Virus record (IMG/VR): IMGVR_UViG_3300037455_000250
Location: 8,968-72,967 of that record
Strand: one strand, 5' to 3'
DNA length: 64,000 nt
DNA from: a virus
Lineage: Duplodnaviria > Caudoviricetes
Shown here: piece after piece, positions 2,402-26,332 of the stretch
How the letters are laid out: each line of letters begins with the position of its first letter
Position numbering within the stretch: the stretch's first letter is position 1
Notes under the pieces: generated by a model
What the model saw: the letters and a program-made list of their open reading frames with translations, nothing else
Databases searched by the model: none
What the model was told of the DNA's origin: nothing
Made by a program: the position numbers and the translations under genes

Positions 2402-3704
2402 GTTACAGATAATCTCAAAGATATTAGAAACAGGAGATTTCTCAATAATTGAGGATAATCTTATAACTGATGATTATTTCAAAGACACAGGATGGGAAGA
2501 TGAGTTTTTATTCATCAAGAATTATTATCAAGAATATGGTACTGTGCCAGATAAATCAACATTCTTACACAAATTCAAAGACAGATTTAAGGGTGAGAAC
2601 CCTTTAGTTGATACTGAAAGAACCAGTAATGAATATCTTGTTGATACAATCCGTGAAGAATATCAGTTTAGAAAGTTAGCACCTGTAGTAGATAAGATTG
2701 CAGACATAGCCAATACTGACGCAAATAAAGCGTGTGAGTATATGTTGCAGGCTATGAAAGATTTGCAACCGAATTATCGTTTGGGTGGTATAGATATTAT
2801 TGCTAATGGTGATAAGAGATTAGAGAATTATAAGGATAGAGTTGAACATCAATCTGATTGGTATTTTTCAAGCGGTTTTCCAGAGTTAGATACTGTTACA
2901 CACGGCATACAAAGAGGGGAAGAATTTATTGTTATTTTTGCCCGTATCAATCAAGGTAAATCTTGGATATTAGAAAAGATGATAACGCACATTTGGTGTC
3001 AAGGGTTTAATGTTGCGTATATATCTCCAGAAATGGGTGATGATAGTATAGGATATAGATTTGATACTTTATTTAAGGGTTATCCTAACAGAAGTTTGAT
3101 GTGGGGTACATCAGAAGTAAATATCACAGAGTATGAGAACCACATTAGTACATTAAAGAATGACCATAAGAATAAATTTATTGTAGCAACTCCAGAAGAT
3201 TTTAATAGAAAAATAACTGTAAGCAAGTTACGCACATTTATTAAACAACATAAGTTAGACGCAATCGCAGTAGACGGCATTAAGTATATGACAGATGAAA
3301 GAGGAAGAAGAAATGATAGTGACGCTACCGCATTAACTAATATTAGTGCCGATTTAATGTCATTATCAGTCGAATTAAAAGTGCCTATTTTAGTTGTTCA
3401 TCAAGCAAACAGACAAGGTGTAATTGATAACGATAGTGAGGGTACTCCTGGTATGCACACAATAAAAGACAGTGACGGTATTGGGGCGTGTGCGTCAAAA
3501 GTATTTTCATTAAGACAAAAAGACGGTGCAGTATCTATTACTCCAGTAAAGCAGAGAAATGGCCCTGTCGGTGACACATTCAAATATCTTTGGAATATAA
3601 ATATCGGTGAGTTTATATACACCGCAGATAATAAAGATTACACACCAGAAGAAAAGAAAGAACGCAGAGAACGCAAAAAGAATGGAGGTAAAGATGTATT
3701 CTAA
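2394..3704 (+). CDS. dnaB: DnaB-like replicative helicase
   Basis: FARINQGKS Walker A, YISPEM, AVDG Walker B, VHQANR, VKQRNG; start could be 2385 or 2394. Confidence 0.85.
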   Translation: MVELQIISKILETGDFSIIEDNLITDDYFKDTGWEDEFLFIKNYYQEYGTVPDKSTFLHKFKDRFKGENPLVDTERTSNEYLVDTIREEYQFRKLAPVVDKIADIANTDANKACEYMLQAMKDLQPNYRLGGIDIIANGDKRLENYKDRVEHQSDWYFSSGFPELDTVTHGIQRGEEFIVIFARINQGKSWILEKMITHIWCQGFNVAYISPEMGDDSIGYRFDTLFKGYPNRSLMWGTSEVNITEYENHISTLKNDHKNKFIVATPEDFNRKITVSKLRTFIKQHKLDAIAVDGIKYMTDERGRRNDSDATALTNISADLMSLSVELKVPILVVHQANRQGVIDNDSEGTPGMHTIKDSDGIGACASKVFSLRQKDGAVSITPVKQRNGPVGDTFKYLWNINIGEFIYTADNKDYTPEEKKERRERKKNGGKDVF

Positions 3705-3849
3705 TGATGTTAACCTTACATTATGCAACAAATGTAAATCGTGTGTTGATGGAAAATGCACAGATAGTTTTGAACCCGGTGTTAGATATGCCTGTGTTAA
3801 TGTGATATTTAAGGAGAACACAGATGAATATAGACGGAACAATAATTAA
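3694..3849 (+). CDS. small Cys-rich protein
   Basis: GGAGG RBS; CNKCKSC...C...C. Confidence 0.5.
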   Translation: MYSNDVNLTLCNKCKSCVDGKCTDSFEPGVRYACVNVIFKENTDEYRRNNN

Positions 3850-4792
3850 CGCAGAACCAGAAGATATAATCACTGAGTTAAGAGCCCAGTTGGCAAAGAG
3901 CGGCATACAAAAGTTTGCGAAGATATTTGATAGTGGGGATGATTTAATGATTTGTTGCCCATATCATAAAGAAGGCCAAGAGCGTAATCCAAGTGCTGGC
4001 ATTAGAAAATCTGACGGACTATTTCACTGTCTTGCTTGTGGTGAAACACACGCATTAACCGAAATGATTAGTGATTGTTTGGGATATAATAACCCAATAT
4101 TAGGATATAAATGGCTGATACAGAATTTTGCAACAACAGAGGTCAGTTCTCGTGGAAAAATTATTGTTAATTATAGAAGGCTCAATAATGATAATGTGCC
4201 TGATATTAGTTCTCCAAAGATAAGTGAAGAAGAATTGGATAATTACCGATATATACACCCGTATCTGTATGAACGTGGTTTAACAGATGAAATTATAGAA
4301 AAGTTTGATATAGGGTATGACAAAGCGACTGACAGTATCACATTTCCTGTGAGAGATAATAATGGCGATTGTATGTTCGTTGCAAGACGGTCTGTTAAGA
4401 CACATCACTTTGATTTGCCTAAAGGCATAACAAAACCATTATATGGTATGTATGAGTTGACACATACAAAAGGGTTCGGAGTTAAATATCCTACAAAGTT
4501 ATATATCTGTGAAGGAACATTCGATTGTTTAAGATTTTGGTGTAATGATAAACTCGCAGTAGCGGGTTTTGGTTGTTTGTTTAATACATATCAGATAAAG
4601 CAAATACAAGATTTGCCGATTAGAACAGTAGTGATTGCCACAGACAACGATAAAGCAGGCTATGAGGCAAATAATAGATTGCGTAAACTATTAACAAACA
4701 AGGTAATCAAAGAAGTTATATGGCCAGAAGGTCGCAAAGACGCGGGCGAATGTACTGATGAAGAAATACAAAATCTCAAGGAGGTTCTATGA
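3824..4792 (+). CDS. dnaG: DNA primase (CHC2 zinc finger + TOPRIM)
   Basis: CCPYH...FHCLAC; ITFPVRD; CEGTFD; TDNDKAG. Confidence 0.9.
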   Translation: MNIDGTIINAEPEDIITELRAQLAKSGIQKFAKIFDSGDDLMICCPYHKEGQERNPSAGIRKSDGLFHCLACGETHALTEMISDCLGYNNPILGYKWLIQNFATTEVSSRGKIIVNYRRLNNDNVPDISSPKISEEELDNYRYIHPYLYERGLTDEIIEKFDIGYDKATDSITFPVRDNNGDCMFVARRSVKTHHFDLPKGITKPLYGMYELTHTKGFGVKYPTKLYICEGTFDCLRFWCNDKLAVAGFGCLFNTYQIKQIQDLPIRTVVIATDNDKAGYEANNRLRKLLTNKVIKEVIWPEGRKDAGECTDEEIQNLKEVL

Positions 4793-5460
4793 TATACACT
4801 TTTTGGGAAGGGTCAATGTCTGGATACATAAAATTGTGTTTAGATACTTGGCGTCAAGAGTTTACACTTTTGAATTATGACAACCTTAATAACTACACTA
4901 ACTTAGATATAAAGGCGTTACAGAATTATACCATTGCTCAAATATCCGATATTGTTCGTGTGCATATATTAAGAGATAACGGTGGATATTGGGTTGACGC
5001 AGATACTATTATGCTTACTGATTATTTGCCCGAAGAAAATATGATAGGTATGCCATCAGATAGAACTGCACATTGTGGGTATCTTCATTTTGATAAGAAC
5101 GCTACTATGCTAAAAGAGTGGGCAGAAAAGCAAGATATGATTATCAGTTCAGGTAGCACGGGTGAATGGGACTTATTTGCAAACTCTCTTTCTGACCCGC
5201 TTGTTAAGAAGTATGATGAAGTTACCATAAAAGACAGGCAATTATATTTTCCCGAAAGTTATATGTCTATTGAAAATAATCCATATTGTCAATACAGAGA
5301 TTTTTATTTTGATAATCATTATCAAGTATCGGATATAAAGCCGACTGAACTGCTTATGTTACACAATTCTTGGACACCATCTTGGTATAAAGATTTAAGT
5401 GAGATAGAGGTACTAACTAAAACAAGAACAATGTCAAATATATTAAAGGAGGTTTTATGA
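4789..5460 (+). CDS. GT32/capsular-polysaccharide-synthesis-like glycosyltransferase
   Basis: IYTFWEG, CLDTW, SDIVRVHILRDNGGYWVDAD (DXD). Confidence 0.75.
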   Translation: MIYTFWEGSMSGYIKLCLDTWRQEFTLLNYDNLNNYTNLDIKALQNYTIAQISDIVRVHILRDNGGYWVDADTIMLTDYLPEENMIGMPSDRTAHCGYLHFDKNATMLKEWAEKQDMIISSGSTGEWDLFANSLSDPLVKKYDEVTIKDRQLYFPESYMSIENNPYCQYRDFYFDNHYQVSDIKPTELLMLHNSWTPSWYKDLSEIEVLTKTRTMSNILKEVL

Positions 5461-7766: not shown

Positions 7767-10066
7767 TGTCACAGTTGTCTTTGTTCGGCGATAGGTTTGA
7801 CAAAGAAACCGATTTAGAAATCGCAAAACAATCTAAACAGAAGTCCAAGAGAAATGCCGTTACTGTAAAAGGTAACGGCATACTTGACAAGATAGCAATT
7901 ATTAGGAACAATGTCGAGAACGCACTTGGCAAATATAAAGACAGATATGTTTGTATTCAAGATATGGACACTTTGCGTAAATACATTGATACCTGTTTAG
8001 ATGATGGCAGAATTGCATTAGATACAGAAACGACAGGACTTAATGTATTCAAAGATAAGATAGTTGGTATATGTCTTAAATCAAAGAGCAATAAAGGAGC
8101 ATACATACCAATTAACCATGTTTCATATAACATAGCAGATAATACATTTACTCGTATTGATACCCAATTAACGATTGAGCAAGTAAGGCCTGAATTGAAA
8201 AGACTTGCCGAAAATATCAAAGAGGTTGATATGTTTAACTCATTCTTTGATAAGAGAGTAATCAAGCACAATTTTGGGCTTTACTTCCCTTGTACTTGGG
8301 AGTGTTCTATCGGAGCAAAGATACTTAATGAGAATATGAACGAGAAGGACTATAACTTAAAGTTCCAACATTCTTACTATGTTCTTAACGGCGAGGAAGA
8401 CGAGTTTAGATTTGGTGATTTGTTTAATGATATAGGGTTTGATAAATGTCCTATTGATTGTGCGACCATATATGGTGGGCATGACGCCGATGATACATTT
8501 GAGTTGTCAGATTTTCAGCGTGAGCATATCTATTATGAGCCGGATTGCACATTTGCAGATAGAAACGGAATGAATGGTGCGTCTTGGTGTTTCTTTAACA
8601 TTGAAATGCCGTGTGTTGACGCAACAATCGAACTTGAAGAAAACGGCATAGCACTTGACCTAAACTATCAAAAAGAATTATCAGAGAGATACAATAAAAA
8701 AGCAAAGGAAATACTTGATAGATTTAGTACAGAGTTAGAGCCATATAATGAGCAGTTAGACGCATTAAGACGGCAAGGTGTTAAACTCGATAATCCTATA
8801 AATATAGGCAGTCCAAAGCAGTTAGCAGTATTACTATATGATGTGCTTAATGTAGGTGTTATAGAGAAGAAAAGTCCGAGGGGTACAGGAGAAGAAATCT
8901 TAACAAAGATTGATAACCCTATTGTTAAAACTATTCTTGATTATCGTAGTGTTCAAAAACTTATAGGCACATATATTGATAAATTGCCTACTTGTCTTGA
9001 AGATGATGGAAGAATACACGCACAGTTTCATCAATATGGTGCGAGAACTGGTAGATTTAGTTCAAGTAATCCAAATTTACAAAATATTCCATCACACAAC
9101 AGAGATATTAGACCTATGTTTGTTGCAAGTCCAAATCATTTATTGATTTCTATGGACTACTCACAACAAGAGCCTTCGTGTCTTGCCGCTTTCTGTAAAA
9201 AGATGGGTTACGATAATCTGTTTAATGCACGATTTAAGGGAAATGACTTATACAGTGAGGTTGCAAGTGCTATCTTTAATCTTCCTTATGATGATTGTGT
9301 TGAGCATAGAGCAGACGGCACGATTAATAAAGAAGGTAAAGCAAGACGAAATGACGCTAAACCAGTTCTGTTAGGTATCTTATACGATAGAGGTGATGAT
9401 AGCGTTGCAGAGGCACTACACATAACATTAGAGCAAGCCAGACAACTTAAACGCAATCTGTATAAGAGATTTCCAGAGATACTTAAATTTGAGCAAGAGA
9501 GTGTCAGAATGGCGCAAGAGTTTGGTTATGTTGATACGATTTGTGGTCGTAAGTGTCGTATACCAGATATGATGTTAGATGATTATGACTTTAAGTGGAT
9601 TGACGCACCAAAAACTGATGATGTGCTTGATTTTGATGGTGATATTGTTGATGAAGTTCCAGACGAAATCTGTGATAAGTATTGGAACAGACTTCATCAA
9701 AAGTATGCAAAGAAAAGAGAAATCTTTGAAGAGGCAAATAAGAAAGACGGAATATGGATTATTGATAACACATTCAAGATAGCAGAGGCTACGAGAAAGT
9801 GTGTTAATTCTCGTATTCAAGGCAGTGCGGCAGACCTTACAAAGAAAGCAATGGCAGAAGTTCTTAAATGTAATCGACTGACAGAGTTAGGTTTCAAGTT
9901 ACTTATCCAAGTACACGACGAACTTATTGGAGAATGTCCAGAAGAAAATATTAAAGAATGTTCAAAGTTATTAGCAGAGGTAATGTCAAAGGCCGCAGAA
10001 GAACTTATCGGTATGCCGTTTAGTTGTGATGCAGAAATTACAAAAGCGTGGTACGGATTAGATTAA
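7766..10066 (+). CDS. polA: family A DNA polymerase with 3'-5' exonuclease
   Basis: ExoI DTETTG; TGRFSSSNPNLQNIP; motif A DYSQQE; motif B RNDAKPVLLGILY; NSRIQGSAAD; motif C QVHDEL; N-terminal QLSLF. Confidence 0.95.
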   Translation: MSQLSLFGDRFDKETDLEIAKQSKQKSKRNAVTVKGNGILDKIAIIRNNVENALGKYKDRYVCIQDMDTLRKYIDTCLDDGRIALDTETTGLNVFKDKIVGICLKSKSNKGAYIPINHVSYNIADNTFTRIDTQLTIEQVRPELKRLAENIKEVDMFNSFFDKRVIKHNFGLYFPCTWECSIGAKILNENMNEKDYNLKFQHSYYVLNGEEDEFRFGDLFNDIGFDKCPIDCATIYGGHDADDTFELSDFQREHIYYEPDCTFADRNGMNGASWCFFNIEMPCVDATIELEENGIALDLNYQKELSERYNKKAKEILDRFSTELEPYNEQLDALRRQGVKLDNPINIGSPKQLAVLLYDVLNVGVIEKKSPRGTGEEILTKIDNPIVKTILDYRSVQKLIGTYIDKLPTCLEDDGRIHAQFHQYGARTGRFSSSNPNLQNIPSHNRDIRPMFVASPNHLLISMDYSQQEPSCLAAFCKKMGYDNLFNARFKGNDLYSEVASAIFNLPYDDCVEHRADGTINKEGKARRNDAKPVLLGILYDRGDDSVAEALHITLEQARQLKRNLYKRFPEILKFEQESVRMAQEFGYVDTICGRKCRIPDMMLDDYDFKWIDAPKTDDVLDFDGDIVDEVPDEICDKYWNRLHQKYAKKREIFEEANKKDGIWIIDNTFKIAEATRKCVNSRIQGSAADLTKKAMAEVLKCNRLTELGFKLLIQVHDELIGECPEENIKECSKLLAEVMSKAAEELIGMPFSCDAEITKAWYGLD

Positions 10067-22546: not shown

Positions 22547-22788
22547 TGACAGGATTAATTGTTGCAGTAACAATATTAGGAACATCATTTGTAGCATATG
22601 CAATATATAGTTTTATCCGTATGTATCAAATGACAAGAAATATGGACGCAATCGCACAGTGTTTTTTGACAATCGTGACACATCCAGAAGATGTGGATAT
22701 TATTGAAGATTACTCAACTAATGGCACAACATCAAAGTGTATGAAGTCTGATTGGAATTTTCCTAATACGGAGGGCGGTTTTCAATGA
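22546..22788 (+). CDS. small membrane protein
   Basis: N-terminal TM helix. Confidence 0.65.
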   Translation: MTGLIVAVTILGTSFVAYAIYSFIRMYQMTRNMDAIAQCFLTIVTHPEDVDIIEDYSTNGTTSKCMKSDWNFPNTEGGFQ

Positions 22789-23804
22789 GCGTATCACTTG
22801 CAATAAAATATAGACCCCAAAAGTTTGACGAGGTGGTAGAGCAATCTGCCACCAAGGTCATTCTCAAACAACAATTAGATAGCGGAGATATTAAGAACGC
22901 ATATTTATTCTGTGGTGGTGCAGGTACAGGCAAAACAACTTGTGCCAGAATATTTGCGAATGAAATTAATAAGGGTAAGGGTCTTCCCATTGAGTTAGAC
23001 GCCGCAAGTAATAACTCCGTAGATGATGTAAGAGAGATTATTCAGCAAGCCAAAACAAACGCATTAGATAGTGAGTATAAAGTGTTTATTATGGATGAAG
23101 TCCACGCACTATCAAACAATGCGTGGCAGGCTATGTTGAAGATACTCGAAGAACCACCAAAAAAGTCCATATTCATTATGTGTACGACAGACCCACAGAA
23201 GATACCAAAGACAATTCTTTCAAGAGTGCAGAGATACAATTTCCAACGAATTAGTCATAAGGCGATTGTTGAGAGATTATGGTATGTGGTTAAGTGTGAG
23301 TTTGAGAACGGTTACCAAATTCGAGCCACAGATGAGGCTCTTGATTTTATCGCAAAGCAGGCACAGGGCGGAATGAGGGACGCTTTGACAATGCTTGATA
23401 AGTGTCTCGCATATTCAGAAGATTTAACCATTGATAGTGTTGTTAAGGCATTAGGAATGTCTGATTATTCTTATATGATTGACTTGTTATATGCGGTTGT
23501 AATCGTAGATTGTAAAGGTCAGATAGATGTTATCAATAAAGTATATATGTCTGGTATTGACTTAAAGCAGTTTATTAAGGACTTTACAGTCTTTGTGTTA
23601 GATTGTTGCAAGTATGATTTACAGGTAGATTTTAAGCATTGTTCTTGTCCTGATACACCAGACATTTGTGATGTGTTTGAGAGTGCTTGTAAAGATATAG
23701 ATATTATTAACTTGTTACGCAGTCTTATTAGATTGCAAACAGATATTAAATGGGACACTAATCCGAAGAGCCGTCTGGAAGCCTGGTGCATAACTGGTGA
23801 ATAA
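22785..23804 (+). CDS. dnaX: DNA polymerase III gamma/tau-like clamp loader ATPase
   Basis: LAIKYRPQKF, GGAGTGKTT, ELDAASNNSVDD, MDEVHAL, LKILEEPP, ILSRVQ, GGMRDA. Confidence 0.95.
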   Translation: MSVSLAIKYRPQKFDEVVEQSATKVILKQQLDSGDIKNAYLFCGGAGTGKTTCARIFANEINKGKGLPIELDAASNNSVDDVREIIQQAKTNALDSEYKVFIMDEVHALSNNAWQAMLKILEEPPKKSIFIMCTTDPQKIPKTILSRVQRYNFQRISHKAIVERLWYVVKCEFENGYQIRATDEALDFIAKQAQGGMRDALTMLDKCLAYSEDLTIDSVVKALGMSDYSYMIDLLYAVVIVDCKGQIDVINKVYMSGIDLKQFIKDFTVFVLDCCKYDLQVDFKHCSCPDTPDICDVFESACKDIDIINLLRSLIRLQTDIKWDTNPKSRLEAWCITGE

Positions 23805-23860
23805 GTGCTATTGTGTACTATTTTATTGTGTGATATATTGTATGTGAAAGGAGCGTTTAT

Positions 23861-24535
23861 ATGAAATCATACAAAGTATATATTCACACATTTCCCAATA
23901 ATAAGCGTTATGTTGGCATTACAAGCAGTAGCACATTACACCGTTGGGGTGACCATGGACAAGGTTATGCAAATCAAAAATTGATGTGGAGAGCAATTCA
24001 AAAATACGGTTGGGATAATATCCAACACATTGTTATTGCAGACAATCTTACTAAAAAACAGGCGTGTGCATTAGAGATACAGTTAATTGCTCTCTTTCAA
24101 TCAAATAAACCAAGATATGGCTATAATGTTTCAGACGGAGGAAATATTCCTGCGCCTCGTTCAGAAGAAACACAAAGACGCATTACTGAAAAATTGCGTG
24201 GTAGAAAACTCTCGGAAGAAACAAAAAAGAAAATATCAAAAAGCCATCTTGGAGAATTAAACGCATTTTATGGTAAAAAGCACACGGAAGAAACAATAAC
24301 TAAATTAAGAATTGCACATACGGGTAAAAAAGCAACAGAGCGTACAAAACAAAAGTTAAGCGAACAACGGAAAGGAAAACATAAGTCGCAAGAGCATAAA
24401 AACAAATTGAGTAAGTCTTTGCTTGGACATTCTGTATCTGAGGAAACTCGATTGAAAATGTCATTGGCTAAAAAAGGACGAAAATTGTCAGAAGAAACTC
24501 GCAGAAAAATGAGCGAGGCACATAAACGAAAATAA
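23861..24535 (+). mobile_element. free-standing GIY-YIG homing endonuclease with NUMOD3-like repeats
   Basis: YKVYIH...KRYVGIT...RW, GYNVSDGG, repeated SEET(K/R)xKIS; inserted at the dnaX 3' end. Confidence 0.9.
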
Positions 24536-24537
24536 TA

Positions 24538-24573
24538 TCAAGAATAGAGGCTTGGTGTATTGCAAAGGAGTAA
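24538..24573 (+). pseudogene. stranded original 3' end of dnaX
   Basis: encodes SRIEAWCIAKE*, against the current dnaX end SRLEAWCITGE*. Confidence 0.8.
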
Positions 24574-24575
24574 CT

Positions 24576-25391
24576 ATGATTGGACAGACAGTATTAAGAG
24601 AGCGTATTAACGGTCAGATAGAGCGTAAGAAATTTCCGAGATTTTCAATCTTAATAGGTGAAAAGGGAAGTGGTAAGAAAACACTTGCCAAAGAGATTGC
24701 AAAGAATTTGGGAATAAGTGCCGTAATGACAGAAACCACAGTTGATAACATTCGACAGGTAATAGACGATTGTTATAAGATTATTGAGCCGTTGGTGTTT
24801 ATATTACCAGACTGTGACAATATGTCCTCTGCGGCGGCTAATGCTCTTTTGAAAGTAACAGAGGAACCTCCGCAAAGAGCCTACTTTATCCTTACCTGTG
24901 AAAGTATTGACAATCTTCTACCAACACTTAAAAGTCGTGGCGTAACTTATATGCTTGAACCTTATTCGTATGAGGATAAATGTGATTATCTTGATAATCT
25001 TGAAATGTCAGATGAAGATATGGAGTTTATTCTTGGAGTATCTTCAACTATAGGCGATGTTAAAACTATGTCAGAAATGAACATCACGGAGTTTAAAGAT
25101 TATGTTGAGTTGGTAATAGATAATATCGCAGAGGTATCTGTCAGCAACGCATTTAAGATAGGTGATAAGATTGCTCTTAAAGATGAGGAAGACAAATATA
25201 ATCTTAAACTTTTCTGGAAAGCGTTTAACGCAGTATGTGTGGACAGAATGAAACAAAGCGATTATCCTGTTATGTATTCAAACGCAATCGCAATTACTGG
25301 TGATTTTGCTCAACAGTTACATATAAGAGGTATAAACAAGCAAATGCTATTTGATGGTTGGCTACTTAAAATCAGAGAGGCTTGGGTATGA
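24576..25391 (+). CDS. holB: clamp loader delta-prime-like subunit
   Basis: GEKGSGKKTLA, VDNIR, AANALLKVTEEPP, LLPTLKSRG. Confidence 0.9.
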   Translation: MIGQTVLRERINGQIERKKFPRFSILIGEKGSGKKTLAKEIAKNLGISAVMTETTVDNIRQVIDDCYKIIEPLVFILPDCDNMSSAAANALLKVTEEPPQRAYFILTCESIDNLLPTLKSRGVTYMLEPYSYEDKCDYLDNLEMSDEDMEFILGVSSTIGDVKTMSEMNITEFKDYVELVIDNIAEVSVSNAFKIGDKIALKDEEDKYNLKLFWKAFNAVCVDRMKQSDYPVMYSNAIAITGDFAQQLHIRGINKQMLFDGWLLKIREAWV

Positions 25392-26332
25392 ACATTACTG
25401 ATGTTAAAACTCAAATCAAGAACAAGGATATACAGTCATACTATATCTTTGCTGGTGATGAGATTGAGATACAGAGAATATACATTAACAAGATTGCAGA
25501 GGTACTTGGCTATGAAGTAGTTAGAGCGGACACAATCGCAGATGTTTGGTCAAGTATCATAACACCAGCTTTGTTTGATAAACCTTGTGTGTATGTTGTT
25601 CGTGACGATAAAGACCTATTACAAAATGAAAAGTTAAATGAAAAGTTAAATAGTAAAACGGAAAACTTAAATGATAATGTCATTATCAATTTGATAACAA
25701 CAGTAGATAAGCGTACAAAATGGTATAAAGCAAATAGCGATAAAATCATTCTATTTGAGCGTTTAAGTGATACAGTCTTAAAGAAATACATTCAGCGTGA
25801 GATAGCACTAAATAACGCTAATTGTGAGCGTTTAATCGCTATATGTGAGAGTGATTATTCACGCATACTTTTAGAGATAGACAAAATCAAACGCTATGTT
25901 AATTATTTAGGACCGGCAGAGTTGTTTGACGGAGTATTTGTGAAGTTAGTTGAAGATGGGACAATTTACACGCCACCTAAAGACGCAATCTTTGATTTAG
26001 TGGACGCTATATTAAAGAGAAATGTTCCGCTTGTGTATGACTTGCTTGAACAGTGTTATGCAGTTGGAGAGGCAAATATGGTTATCTTGTCTGTTCTATA
26101 TAACAATGCAAAACAGGTGTTACAAGTTCAAGCGTGTGAAAGTTCGGATGTTTGTAAGTCAACAGGATTAACTTCTTGGCAAGTAAAGTGTGCAAAAGAA
26201 AAATGTGGTCATTATTCTCTTGGCGAGTTGGAACGCATTTTGAAATTGATACAAGAAACACAGAAAGGAATAATCACAGGACAGATTGAAGATAGTTTGT
26301 CCGTAGAAAGATTATTGGTAGAGATTTTATGA
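25388..26332 (+). CDS. holA: clamp loader delta-like subunit
   Basis: YYIFAGDE, LF..P, DKRTKWYK, EIDKI, AIFDLVDAI; follows dnaX/holB. Confidence 0.85.
   Translation: MNITDVKTQIKNKDIQSYYIFAGDEIEIQRIYINKIAEVLGYEVVRADTIADVWSSIITPALFDKPCVYVVRDDKDLLQNEKLNEKLNSKTENLNDNVIINLITTVDKRTKWYKANSDKIILFERLSDTVLKKYIQREIALNNANCERLIAICESDYSRILLEIDKIKRYVNYLGPAELFDGVFVKLVEDGTIYTPPKDAIFDLVDAILKRNVPLVYDLLEQCYAVGEANMVILSVLYNNAKQVLQVQACESSDVCKSTGLTSWQVKCAKEKCGHYSLGELERILKLIQETQKGIITGQIEDSLSVERLLVEIL

Follow-up and report, generated by a model that had tools for sequence, protein, structure and literature searches.

How can a free-standing homing endonuclease gene occupy the coding end of an essential phage gene when no space separates that gene from its neighbour? 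The question is raised by the dnaX-holB junction of IMG/VR record IMGVR_UViG_3300037455_000250, the complete, metagenome-assembled 72,967-bp record of an uncultured virus (Duplodnaviria; Caudoviricetes), a cattle-gut phage. The window analyzed here is the stretch of 64,000 nucleotides (nt) at positions 8,968 to 72,967 of that record, and coordinates are those of the window unless another genome is named. Genes for a dnaX-like protein, a GIY-YIG/NUMOD3 endonuclease, a holB-like and a holA-like protein follow one another on the plus strand, and a sequence for the last eleven codons of dnaX is found twice, once as the expressed end of the gene (tail A) and once between the endonuclease gene and holB (tail B). 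We propose, with a probability of about 0.7, that tail A, the spacer behind it and the endonuclease gene constitute a mobile cassette that originated at the 3' end of dnaX by one-sided homing. The features of the locus, with protein lengths in amino acids (aa), are the following:

22785-23804, plus strand: open reading frame (ORF) of the dnaX-like clamp-loader ATPase, 339 aa
22785-23768, plus strand: dnaX gene core, codons 1-328, with Pfam matches to DNA_pol3_delta2 (3e-27), AAA, DNAX_ATPase_lid and DNA_pol3_gamma3
23769-23804, plus strand: tail A, the expressed last 11 dnaX codons and stop (SRLEAWCITGE and stop), the putative replacement tail travelling with the endonuclease
23805-23860, plus strand: spacer that holds a separate ribosome-binding site for the endonuclease gene (AAAGGAG at 23847-23853, 7 nt ahead of the start codon)
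23861-24535, plus strand: free-standing GIY-YIG/NUMOD3 homing endonuclease gene, 224 aa, apparently intact, assigned with Pfam
24538-24573, plus strand: tail B, a non-coding relic of a dnaX tail (SRIEAWCIAKE and stop) carrying the holB Shine-Dalgarno sequence AAGGAG (24565-24570)
24576-25391, plus strand: holB-like (delta') clamp-loader subunit, Pfam DNA_pol3_delta2 (1e-19)
25382-26332, plus strand: holA-like (delta) clamp-loader subunit, Pfam DNA_pol3_delta_C (1e-14)

Both tails were found exactly at the positions and with the sequences given in an earlier note made from the window alone. Tail A reads AGC CGT CTG GAA GCC TGG TGC ATA ACT GGT GAA TAA and tail B reads TCA AGA ATA GAG GCT TGG TGT ATT GCA AAG GAG TAA. 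As that note had remarked, nearly the same peptide is written in different codons: 8 of the 11 residues are identical and the stops are in register, whereas only 19 of the 36 bases (53%) agree and the longest common run is 5 nt. When 200 random Markov-1 windows of 64 kb were searched in six frames, the best 11-residue match had 7 identities in 4 windows and 6 or fewer in all others. The tail repeat is thus more than chance. It is short and the virus is metagenome-assembled, so a coincidence or an assembly artefact might be suspected; yet 8/11 was reached in none of the 200 random windows, the real match falls at the one meaningful position with its stop in register, and copies with only 53% DNA identity cannot mislead an assembler. 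Moreover, the endonuclease is accompanied by dnaX or holB homologues on independently assembled contigs, as judged by their identical size and source. We give this explanation practically no credence. An extension of the repeat by four codons upstream (TNPK versus TKII, 7/12 nt) was too weak to be used.

Tail B begins 2 nt past the endonuclease stop and ends 2 nt (CT) ahead of the holB ATG at 24576, and its AAGGAG is placed 5 nt ahead of that ATG, which agrees with the earlier assignment of the holB ribosome-binding site to the downstream copy. It lacks a start codon and is preceded, five codons upstream, by an in-frame TAA, and so is not an ORF. The sequence is consistent with dnaX ending in tail A as the sole expressed form, tail B being probably untranslated. 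The endonuclease ORF ends in CGA AAA TAA (window 24526-24573), and in the -1 frame the A-run reads on through ATA ATA into tail B; a hypothetical -1 slip before the endonuclease stop would append IISRIEAWCIAKE to the protein, but there is no canonical slippery heptamer at this place and nothing supports such an event.

The organization of the junction without the endonuclease can be read from about 70 IMG/VR relatives (48-66% DnaX identity), 57 of which have a dnaX stop that overlaps or abuts the holB start (gap of -30 to +20 nt). In one of them, L001, an AGGAGG lies inside the dnaX tail and the dnaX TGA overlaps a holB GTG. L084, the single close relative (72% identity) and a short contig among the metagenome-contig matches listed, where two truncated contigs accompany it, ends its dnaX in AGA ATA GAG GCC TGG TGT ATA ACA AGA GAA TGG GAG AAA GAA TAATG, where the ATG of TAATG is the holB start (MIGQ). 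Since the dnaX stop overlaps the holB start in the relatives, no intergenic space exists there and the holB ribosome-binding site is made of dnaX codons. Tail B has the same position relative to holB as the dnaX tail of endonuclease-free relatives, and hence the claim that the second tail survives as the Shine-Dalgarno region of holB holds. A start of the type M[IVL]GQ is found at the equivalent ATG in 116 of 120 holB homologues; a tail B upstream of holB was looked for in the form of N-terminal extensions of the called proteins, and the three proteins so extended all come from endonuclease-free arrangements. On the dnaX side, an alignment of 46 DnaX sequences shows N326, P327, R330, E332 and W334 as invariant and C335 as nearly so, and tail A retains the family-invariant R330, E332 and W334. 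With overlapping genes and invariant residues in the DnaX tail, an insertion at this junction must rescue both dnaX and holB.

The protein encoded by the inserted gene matches NUMOD3 (PF07460; 2e-22, 79 bits) and GIY-YIG (PF01541; 25.8 bits, cut-off 22.6), with four NUMOD3 repeat matches in the genome scan. In 35 endonuclease homologues the residues Y17, G19, R28, E72 and N89 are invariant and Y7 nearly so; we take the conserved residues to be equivalent to Y6/Y17/R27/E75/N90 of I-TevI. The gene is apparently intact, and all homologues at 88-97% identity in ENA and Logan assemblies have the same length of 224 aa. It is the sole GIY-YIG/NUMOD3 gene in the 73-kb genome, where matches to the HNH families PF01844 and PF13392 were absent. 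Endonucleases of the GIY-YIG/NUMOD3 type are often intron-encoded, and some of the database homologues are labelled 'group I intron endonuclease'. It could be supposed from this that the intervening 769 nt are removed as a group I or group II intron or as an intein, joining the dnaX core to tail B. Nevertheless, no Rfam match with E<=1 was obtained on either strand of 23300-25000, and RNA folds around both junctions and the spacer were no better than those of shuffled sequences. Besides, dnaX is already complete ahead of the insert, with a consensus tail and a stop, the endonuclease gene has a Shine-Dalgarno sequence, an ATG and a stop of its own, and a distance of 769 nt between the tails, not being a multiple of 3, excludes an in-frame intein. 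Splicing appears very improbable on these grounds, and the invasion of the dnaX 3' end without it, as the earlier note had it, stands. Apparent 'long' dnaX matches of 1.4 kb in IMG/VR loci proved to be dnaX matching its paralogue holB and not introns. No plus-strand terminator was found between dnaX and the endonuclease gene, and a scan for promoters and terminators across dnaX, the endonuclease gene and holB gave nothing above background. The spacer has a direct repeat at 23811-23838, TATTGTGT occurring twice (CTATTGTGTAC / TTATTGTGTGA), where the promoter scan was also at background.

The distribution of the endonuclease is patchy. Of the roughly 70 IMG/VR relatives, one (L077) has a 41%-identical homologue at the dnaX-holB site, and the others lack close copies. 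A scan of viral contigs with the endonuclease gave no identity above 53%, and that in a fragment, the longer matches having 41-48%; holB as query had no match in viral contigs, and a scan of genome contigs with dnaX returned bacterial dnaX genes only. Among GenBank phages even the best DnaX matches are remote, with 46-48% identity in Streptococcus phages MS1 and Dp-1 and 44% in Clostridium phage phiCTP1. A set of 120 DnaX homologues (331-345 aa) was gathered at 66-75% identity, so none exceeds 75% identity to the DnaX of the window. Four of the close endonuclease copies could be paired, by source and contig size, with members of this set:

ENA contig of 3,682 nt: endonuclease P0122, dnaX P0025, tail SRLEAWCITGE
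Logan contig of 7,063 nt: endonuclease P0124, dnaX P0089, tail CRLEAWCITGE
ENA contig of 50,479 nt: endonuclease P0243, dnaX P0035, tail SRVEAWCITGE
Logan contig of 72,181 nt: endonuclease P0246, dnaX P0074, tail SRVEAWCIIGE

Across the paired contigs the endonucleases are 88-97% identical and the DnaX proteins 68-76%. The endonuclease is therefore far more similar between contigs than the dnaX that hosts it, which points to recent spread. All five endonuclease-linked dnaX genes, that of the window and the four paired ones, end in [SC]R[LV]EAWCI[TI]GE. On contigs of at least 30 kb, the [SC]R[LV] tail was found in 3 of 3 sequences with the endonuclease versus 2 of 31 without it (Fisher P=0.0017), which is suggestive of a tail A type that goes with the endonuclease from genome to genome. 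A more distant endonuclease, P0126 (78% identical), reads through its own stop into a C-terminus ending in KQHQE and a stop, which would fit TCAAGAATAG following it, and its contig size of 3,375 nt equals that of a holB homologue; the read-through C-terminus suggests that tail B may also travel with the element.

The composition of the two tails differs. Several codons of tail A are seldom used by this phage (AGC 0.09, CTG 0.06, GCC 0.12, TGC 0.16), its codon use falls at the 2.7th percentile among 11-codon windows of the phage's long ORFs, and its first seven codons have a GC content of 0.67 versus 0.37 for dnaX. Tail B is phage-typical in codon use, at the 74th percentile of such windows. 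Over 8 comparable codons, the DNA of L084 and L007, both endonuclease-free, agrees with tail B at 20 of 24 nt and with tail A at 14-15 of 24. By the Nei-Gojobori method, the tails differ by 8.6 synonymous changes over 6.8 sites versus 8.4 non-synonymous changes over 26.2 sites (binomial P=0.003). This enrichment at synonymous sites indicates that each copy diverged while it was the end of a working dnaX, and it favours an origin of the tails as two alleles from different lineages rather than a relic that drifted in place.

The pattern of divergence bears directly on a different course of events, in which the dnaX/holB junction was first duplicated in tandem and the endonuclease gene was inserted later between copies that diverged in place. 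Slippage can duplicate junctions, and this one tolerates insertions, given that unrelated inserts of 177-907 nt were found between dnaX and holB in 12 of the about 70 relatives. None of these other inserts, though, is accompanied by a duplicated tail. A relic in place should also change regardless of coding, contrary to the synonymous enrichment and to the stop kept in register, and a nucleotide divergence of 47% accumulated in place misfits an endonuclease that is 88-97% identical between lineages. We consider this sequence of events improbable. Ten of the relatives with inserts and no duplicated tail (L014, L017, L019, L031, L036, L049, L062, L063, L075 and L078) have 177-696 nt between the two genes. 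In L007, which by DnaX stands closest among the IMG/VR relatives (66% identity), an insert of 820 nt with three small ORFs (4509-5324) lies at the same place, and one of these ORFs barely passes the Pfam cut-off for superinfection-exclusion GP17 (25.7 bits, cut-off 25).

Which of the two tails is native to this dnaX is a question on which the peptides give little help. Most of the 120 DnaX homologues end in [AS]R[IV]EAWCITGE, including those of near-complete genomes without this endonuclease, while the endings ITKE, IAKE and FAKE occur naturally in a smaller number (P0085, for instance, has ARIEAWCIAKE). The earlier note had predicted that endonuclease-free relatives would carry the dnaX tail directly on the holB start, which they do, and that this tail would end in IAKE, which it mostly does not; ITGE-type tails, which it had named as evidence against its reading, turned out to be the norm. 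Tail A is distinctive by S/C at position -11, by L/V at -9 and by its rare codons, and not by ITGE. In the same manner, the idea of a replacement tail fares well insofar as dnaX is completed by a differently spelled end, but not as a purpose-made recoding, as ITGE tails are the natural norm. The spare tail looks like a natural allele co-transferred from another phage and not necessarily one recoded for the purpose.

The same consensus lends some weight to a cassette with other limits, made of the spacer, the endonuclease gene and tail B, and inserted exactly behind the dnaX stop and ahead of the holB start; on this view tail A would be native and tail B would be foreign, the supplier of a ribosome-binding site to holB. 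ITGE is the family consensus and IAKE is rare, tail A also contains a possible Shine-Dalgarno sequence (GGTGA), and, to judge by the C-terminus of P0126, another lineage may have kept the start of tail B beside its endonuclease gene. However, it is tail A that is the compositional outlier and tail B that is typical, the DNA of endonuclease-free relatives is nearer to tail B, and it is the [SC]R[LV] type of tail that accompanies the endonuclease. Furthermore, a viable donor with the endonuclease gene upstream of its dnaX tail would itself have needed a tail A, which leads back to the same founding event, and co-conversion of both tails during homing would make the two accounts indistinguishable for this genome. 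We regard this arrangement as unlikely, although less so than a duplication that came first.

In the reading that we prefer, the cassette would begin with tail A as the replacement end of dnaX, continue with 56 nt of spacer that include a ribosome-binding site and close with the endonuclease gene, the whole being inserted at the boundary of codons 328 and 329. A plain insertion would have removed three invariant DnaX residues or parted holB from its ribosome-binding site. Instead, DnaX would be completed by tail A, a divergent allele that formerly ended the working dnaX of another phage, and the displaced tail B would stay before holB as an untranslated ribosome-binding site. As for the founding event, we infer a cut by the enzyme in an endonuclease-free dnaX close to codon -11. 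Homology to a donor dnaX would have guided repair of the left side, with copying of the donor's tail, spacer and endonuclease gene, and the right end would have been sealed with no homology involved, a course known as one-sided homing with illegitimate repair. The spacer behind tail A may retain a faint trace of a donor whose dnaX had no holB behind it, for it matches the sequence after the L007 dnaX stop at 16 of 19 bases, and 6 of 2000 shuffles score as high. From then on, ordinary homing would have spread the entire unit, probably with tail B. Both tails may thus have reached this genome together, in which case the 'old tail' would be that of the first genome invaded. Over the 21 bases that follow the insertion point, tail A and tail B differ at 11, and for this reason the occupied allele is probably no longer a substrate of the enzyme; in addition, with no common run of more than 5 nt between the tails, a recombination deleting the element would be unlikely.

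Several points weigh against this reading. ITGE, the ending of tail A, is the family consensus and IAKE, that of tail B, a minority, so that the peptides do not tell which tail is foreign. The dnaX genes of the relatives range from 0.14 to 0.55 in third-position GC content, and the rare codons of tail A need not reflect selection, since a GC-richer donor could suffice. The tail DNA comparison draws on no more than two relatives free of the endonuclease, with 66% and 72% protein identity, and with tails of 11 codons all tail statistics are of small sample. The endonuclease-dnaX pairing is deduced from a common source and an equal contig size in nt, and the contigs are phylogenetically non-independent. 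Sequence and profile searches of PDB with the endonuclease found no solved relative. A bolder version, in which the element is a natural 'cut and rescue' unit that is hard to lose, its tail kept maximally different from the target and tail B indispensable to holB, is tentative and we think it rather doubtful. In the first seven codons of the tail all five synonymously variable codons differ maximally, by rough estimate an outcome of about 1% under the codon use of the phage. If it were true, the maximal difference would confer immunity to cutting and also block recombination between the tails, and together with L077 it would represent a general, unrecognised route for intron-less homing endonucleases into overlapping essential phage genes.

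L077 (IMGVR_UViG_3300021387_000125; 2486-5428) is the relative with the 41%-identical endonuclease, and it was found to carry an insertion at the other end of dnaX as well. A relic of the dnaX 5' end of 55 codons (2486-2653) that ends within the Walker-A codons is followed by a gene for a GIY-YIG protein of 269 aa (2689-3498) and by a complete dnaX (3495-4520); between this dnaX and holB lies the second GIY-YIG/NUMOD3 gene (4536-5414), the one 41% identical to that of the window. The relic and the start of the working dnaX share 31 of 47 residues and 61% of bases, and the mean identities of the two 5' copies to the relatives are 0.585 and 0.609. In gene layout, this is the mirror image of the arrangement in the window, at the dnaX 5' end. 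A third kind of insertion was seen in holA, where two ORFs, divided at about residue 175-182, take the place of a single one in L017 (5993-7473), L041 (6060-7834) and L060 (5288-7096), and also in L025, L044 and L067. The ORF between the holA halves of L017, L041 and L060 encodes a NUMOD4/HNH_3/NUMOD1 (I-HmuI-like) endonuclease, and Rfam found no intron at the split holA loci. The split holA genes would represent a genes-in-pieces delta subunit of the clamp loader. In L044 a different ORF lies between the halves.

Taken together, the L077 case, the split holA genes and the junction inserts mark the clamp-loader operon as a hot spot of invasion by elements of this sort. In this phage group it would tolerate insertion in three ways: replacement of a gene tail, replacement of a gene start and splitting of the gene. 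A homing endonuclease with neither intron nor intein could accordingly settle at the coding end of an essential gene even where this end runs into the next gene, bringing along a spare gene end while the old end persists as a translation signal. The predicted target of the enzyme is the conserved junction of dnaX tail and holB start. For annotation, short 'orphan' gene ends beside endonuclease genes may mark past invasions, and gene ends and gene cores can differ in history.

A comparable layout is known from the mobile endonuclease ORFs (mORFs) of fungal mitochondria, described in atp6 of Allomyces macrogynus and in atp6, atp9 (GIY-YIG), cox2 and nad3 of Glomus sp. DAOM-229456, with further hybrids in Rhizopus atp9 and Mortierella cox2 (PMC3630166). 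There, as here, a gene core is followed by an inserted C-terminus, an endonuclease ORF and the native C-terminus downstream, and the two termini are near in protein and far in DNA (91% aa and 63.5% nt in Glomus atp6; 8/11 aa and 53% nt here) (PMC3630166). The fungal cases also share the lack of splicing. Their native terminus is nearer to the relatives, and the two relatives available in our case, with 66-72% protein identity, may point the same way.

Phage T4 offers other points of comparison, beginning with a precedent for one-sided homing with illegitimate repair (PMC2988022). The GIY-YIG gene described here resembles those of the Seg type (SegF, SegG) in being free-standing, in encoding DNA-binding repeats, in its place among essential replication genes and in its patchy occurrence among relatives (PMC2988022). 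As in Seg-type intronless homing, spread is expected to proceed by double-strand-break repair with co-conversion of the flanks (PMC2988022). The likeness is one of layout: Seg genes lie between genes with no duplication of a gene end, whereas this gene sits inside a coding end that is rescued by the tail it carries. The relatives have no intergenic space at this junction that a Seg-type placement could use, and the dnaX end is duplicated and replaced here. The genes-in-pieces, with mobE in nrdA of Aeromonas phage Aeh1 and mobA in T4 gene 39/60 (PMC2988022), likewise have a homing endonuclease within an essential phage gene and no intron, but they yield two polypeptides that reassemble, while DnaX stays single and the cassette supplies its missing end.

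In our limited literature search, an endonuclease that carries a gene end was textbook knowledge for fungal mitochondria and rarely described for phages. The review of T4 mobile DNA (PMC2988022) makes no mention of duplication, a 2023 survey of phage endonuclease genes mentions duplication only for repeats within the endonuclease genes, and a 2025 study of Skunavirus does not mention gene-end duplication. By analogy of arrangement, the element in the window is what we would call the phage counterpart of the fungal mitochondrial mORFs. It differs from them in its phage host, in the replacement of only 11 codons, in an endonuclease ORF that is unfused and has its own ribosome-binding site, and in a leftover tail that serves as the Shine-Dalgarno sequence of the overlapping downstream gene. 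Some of the fungal mORFs are known to be expressed and to cleave DNA; for the phage element both are predicted.

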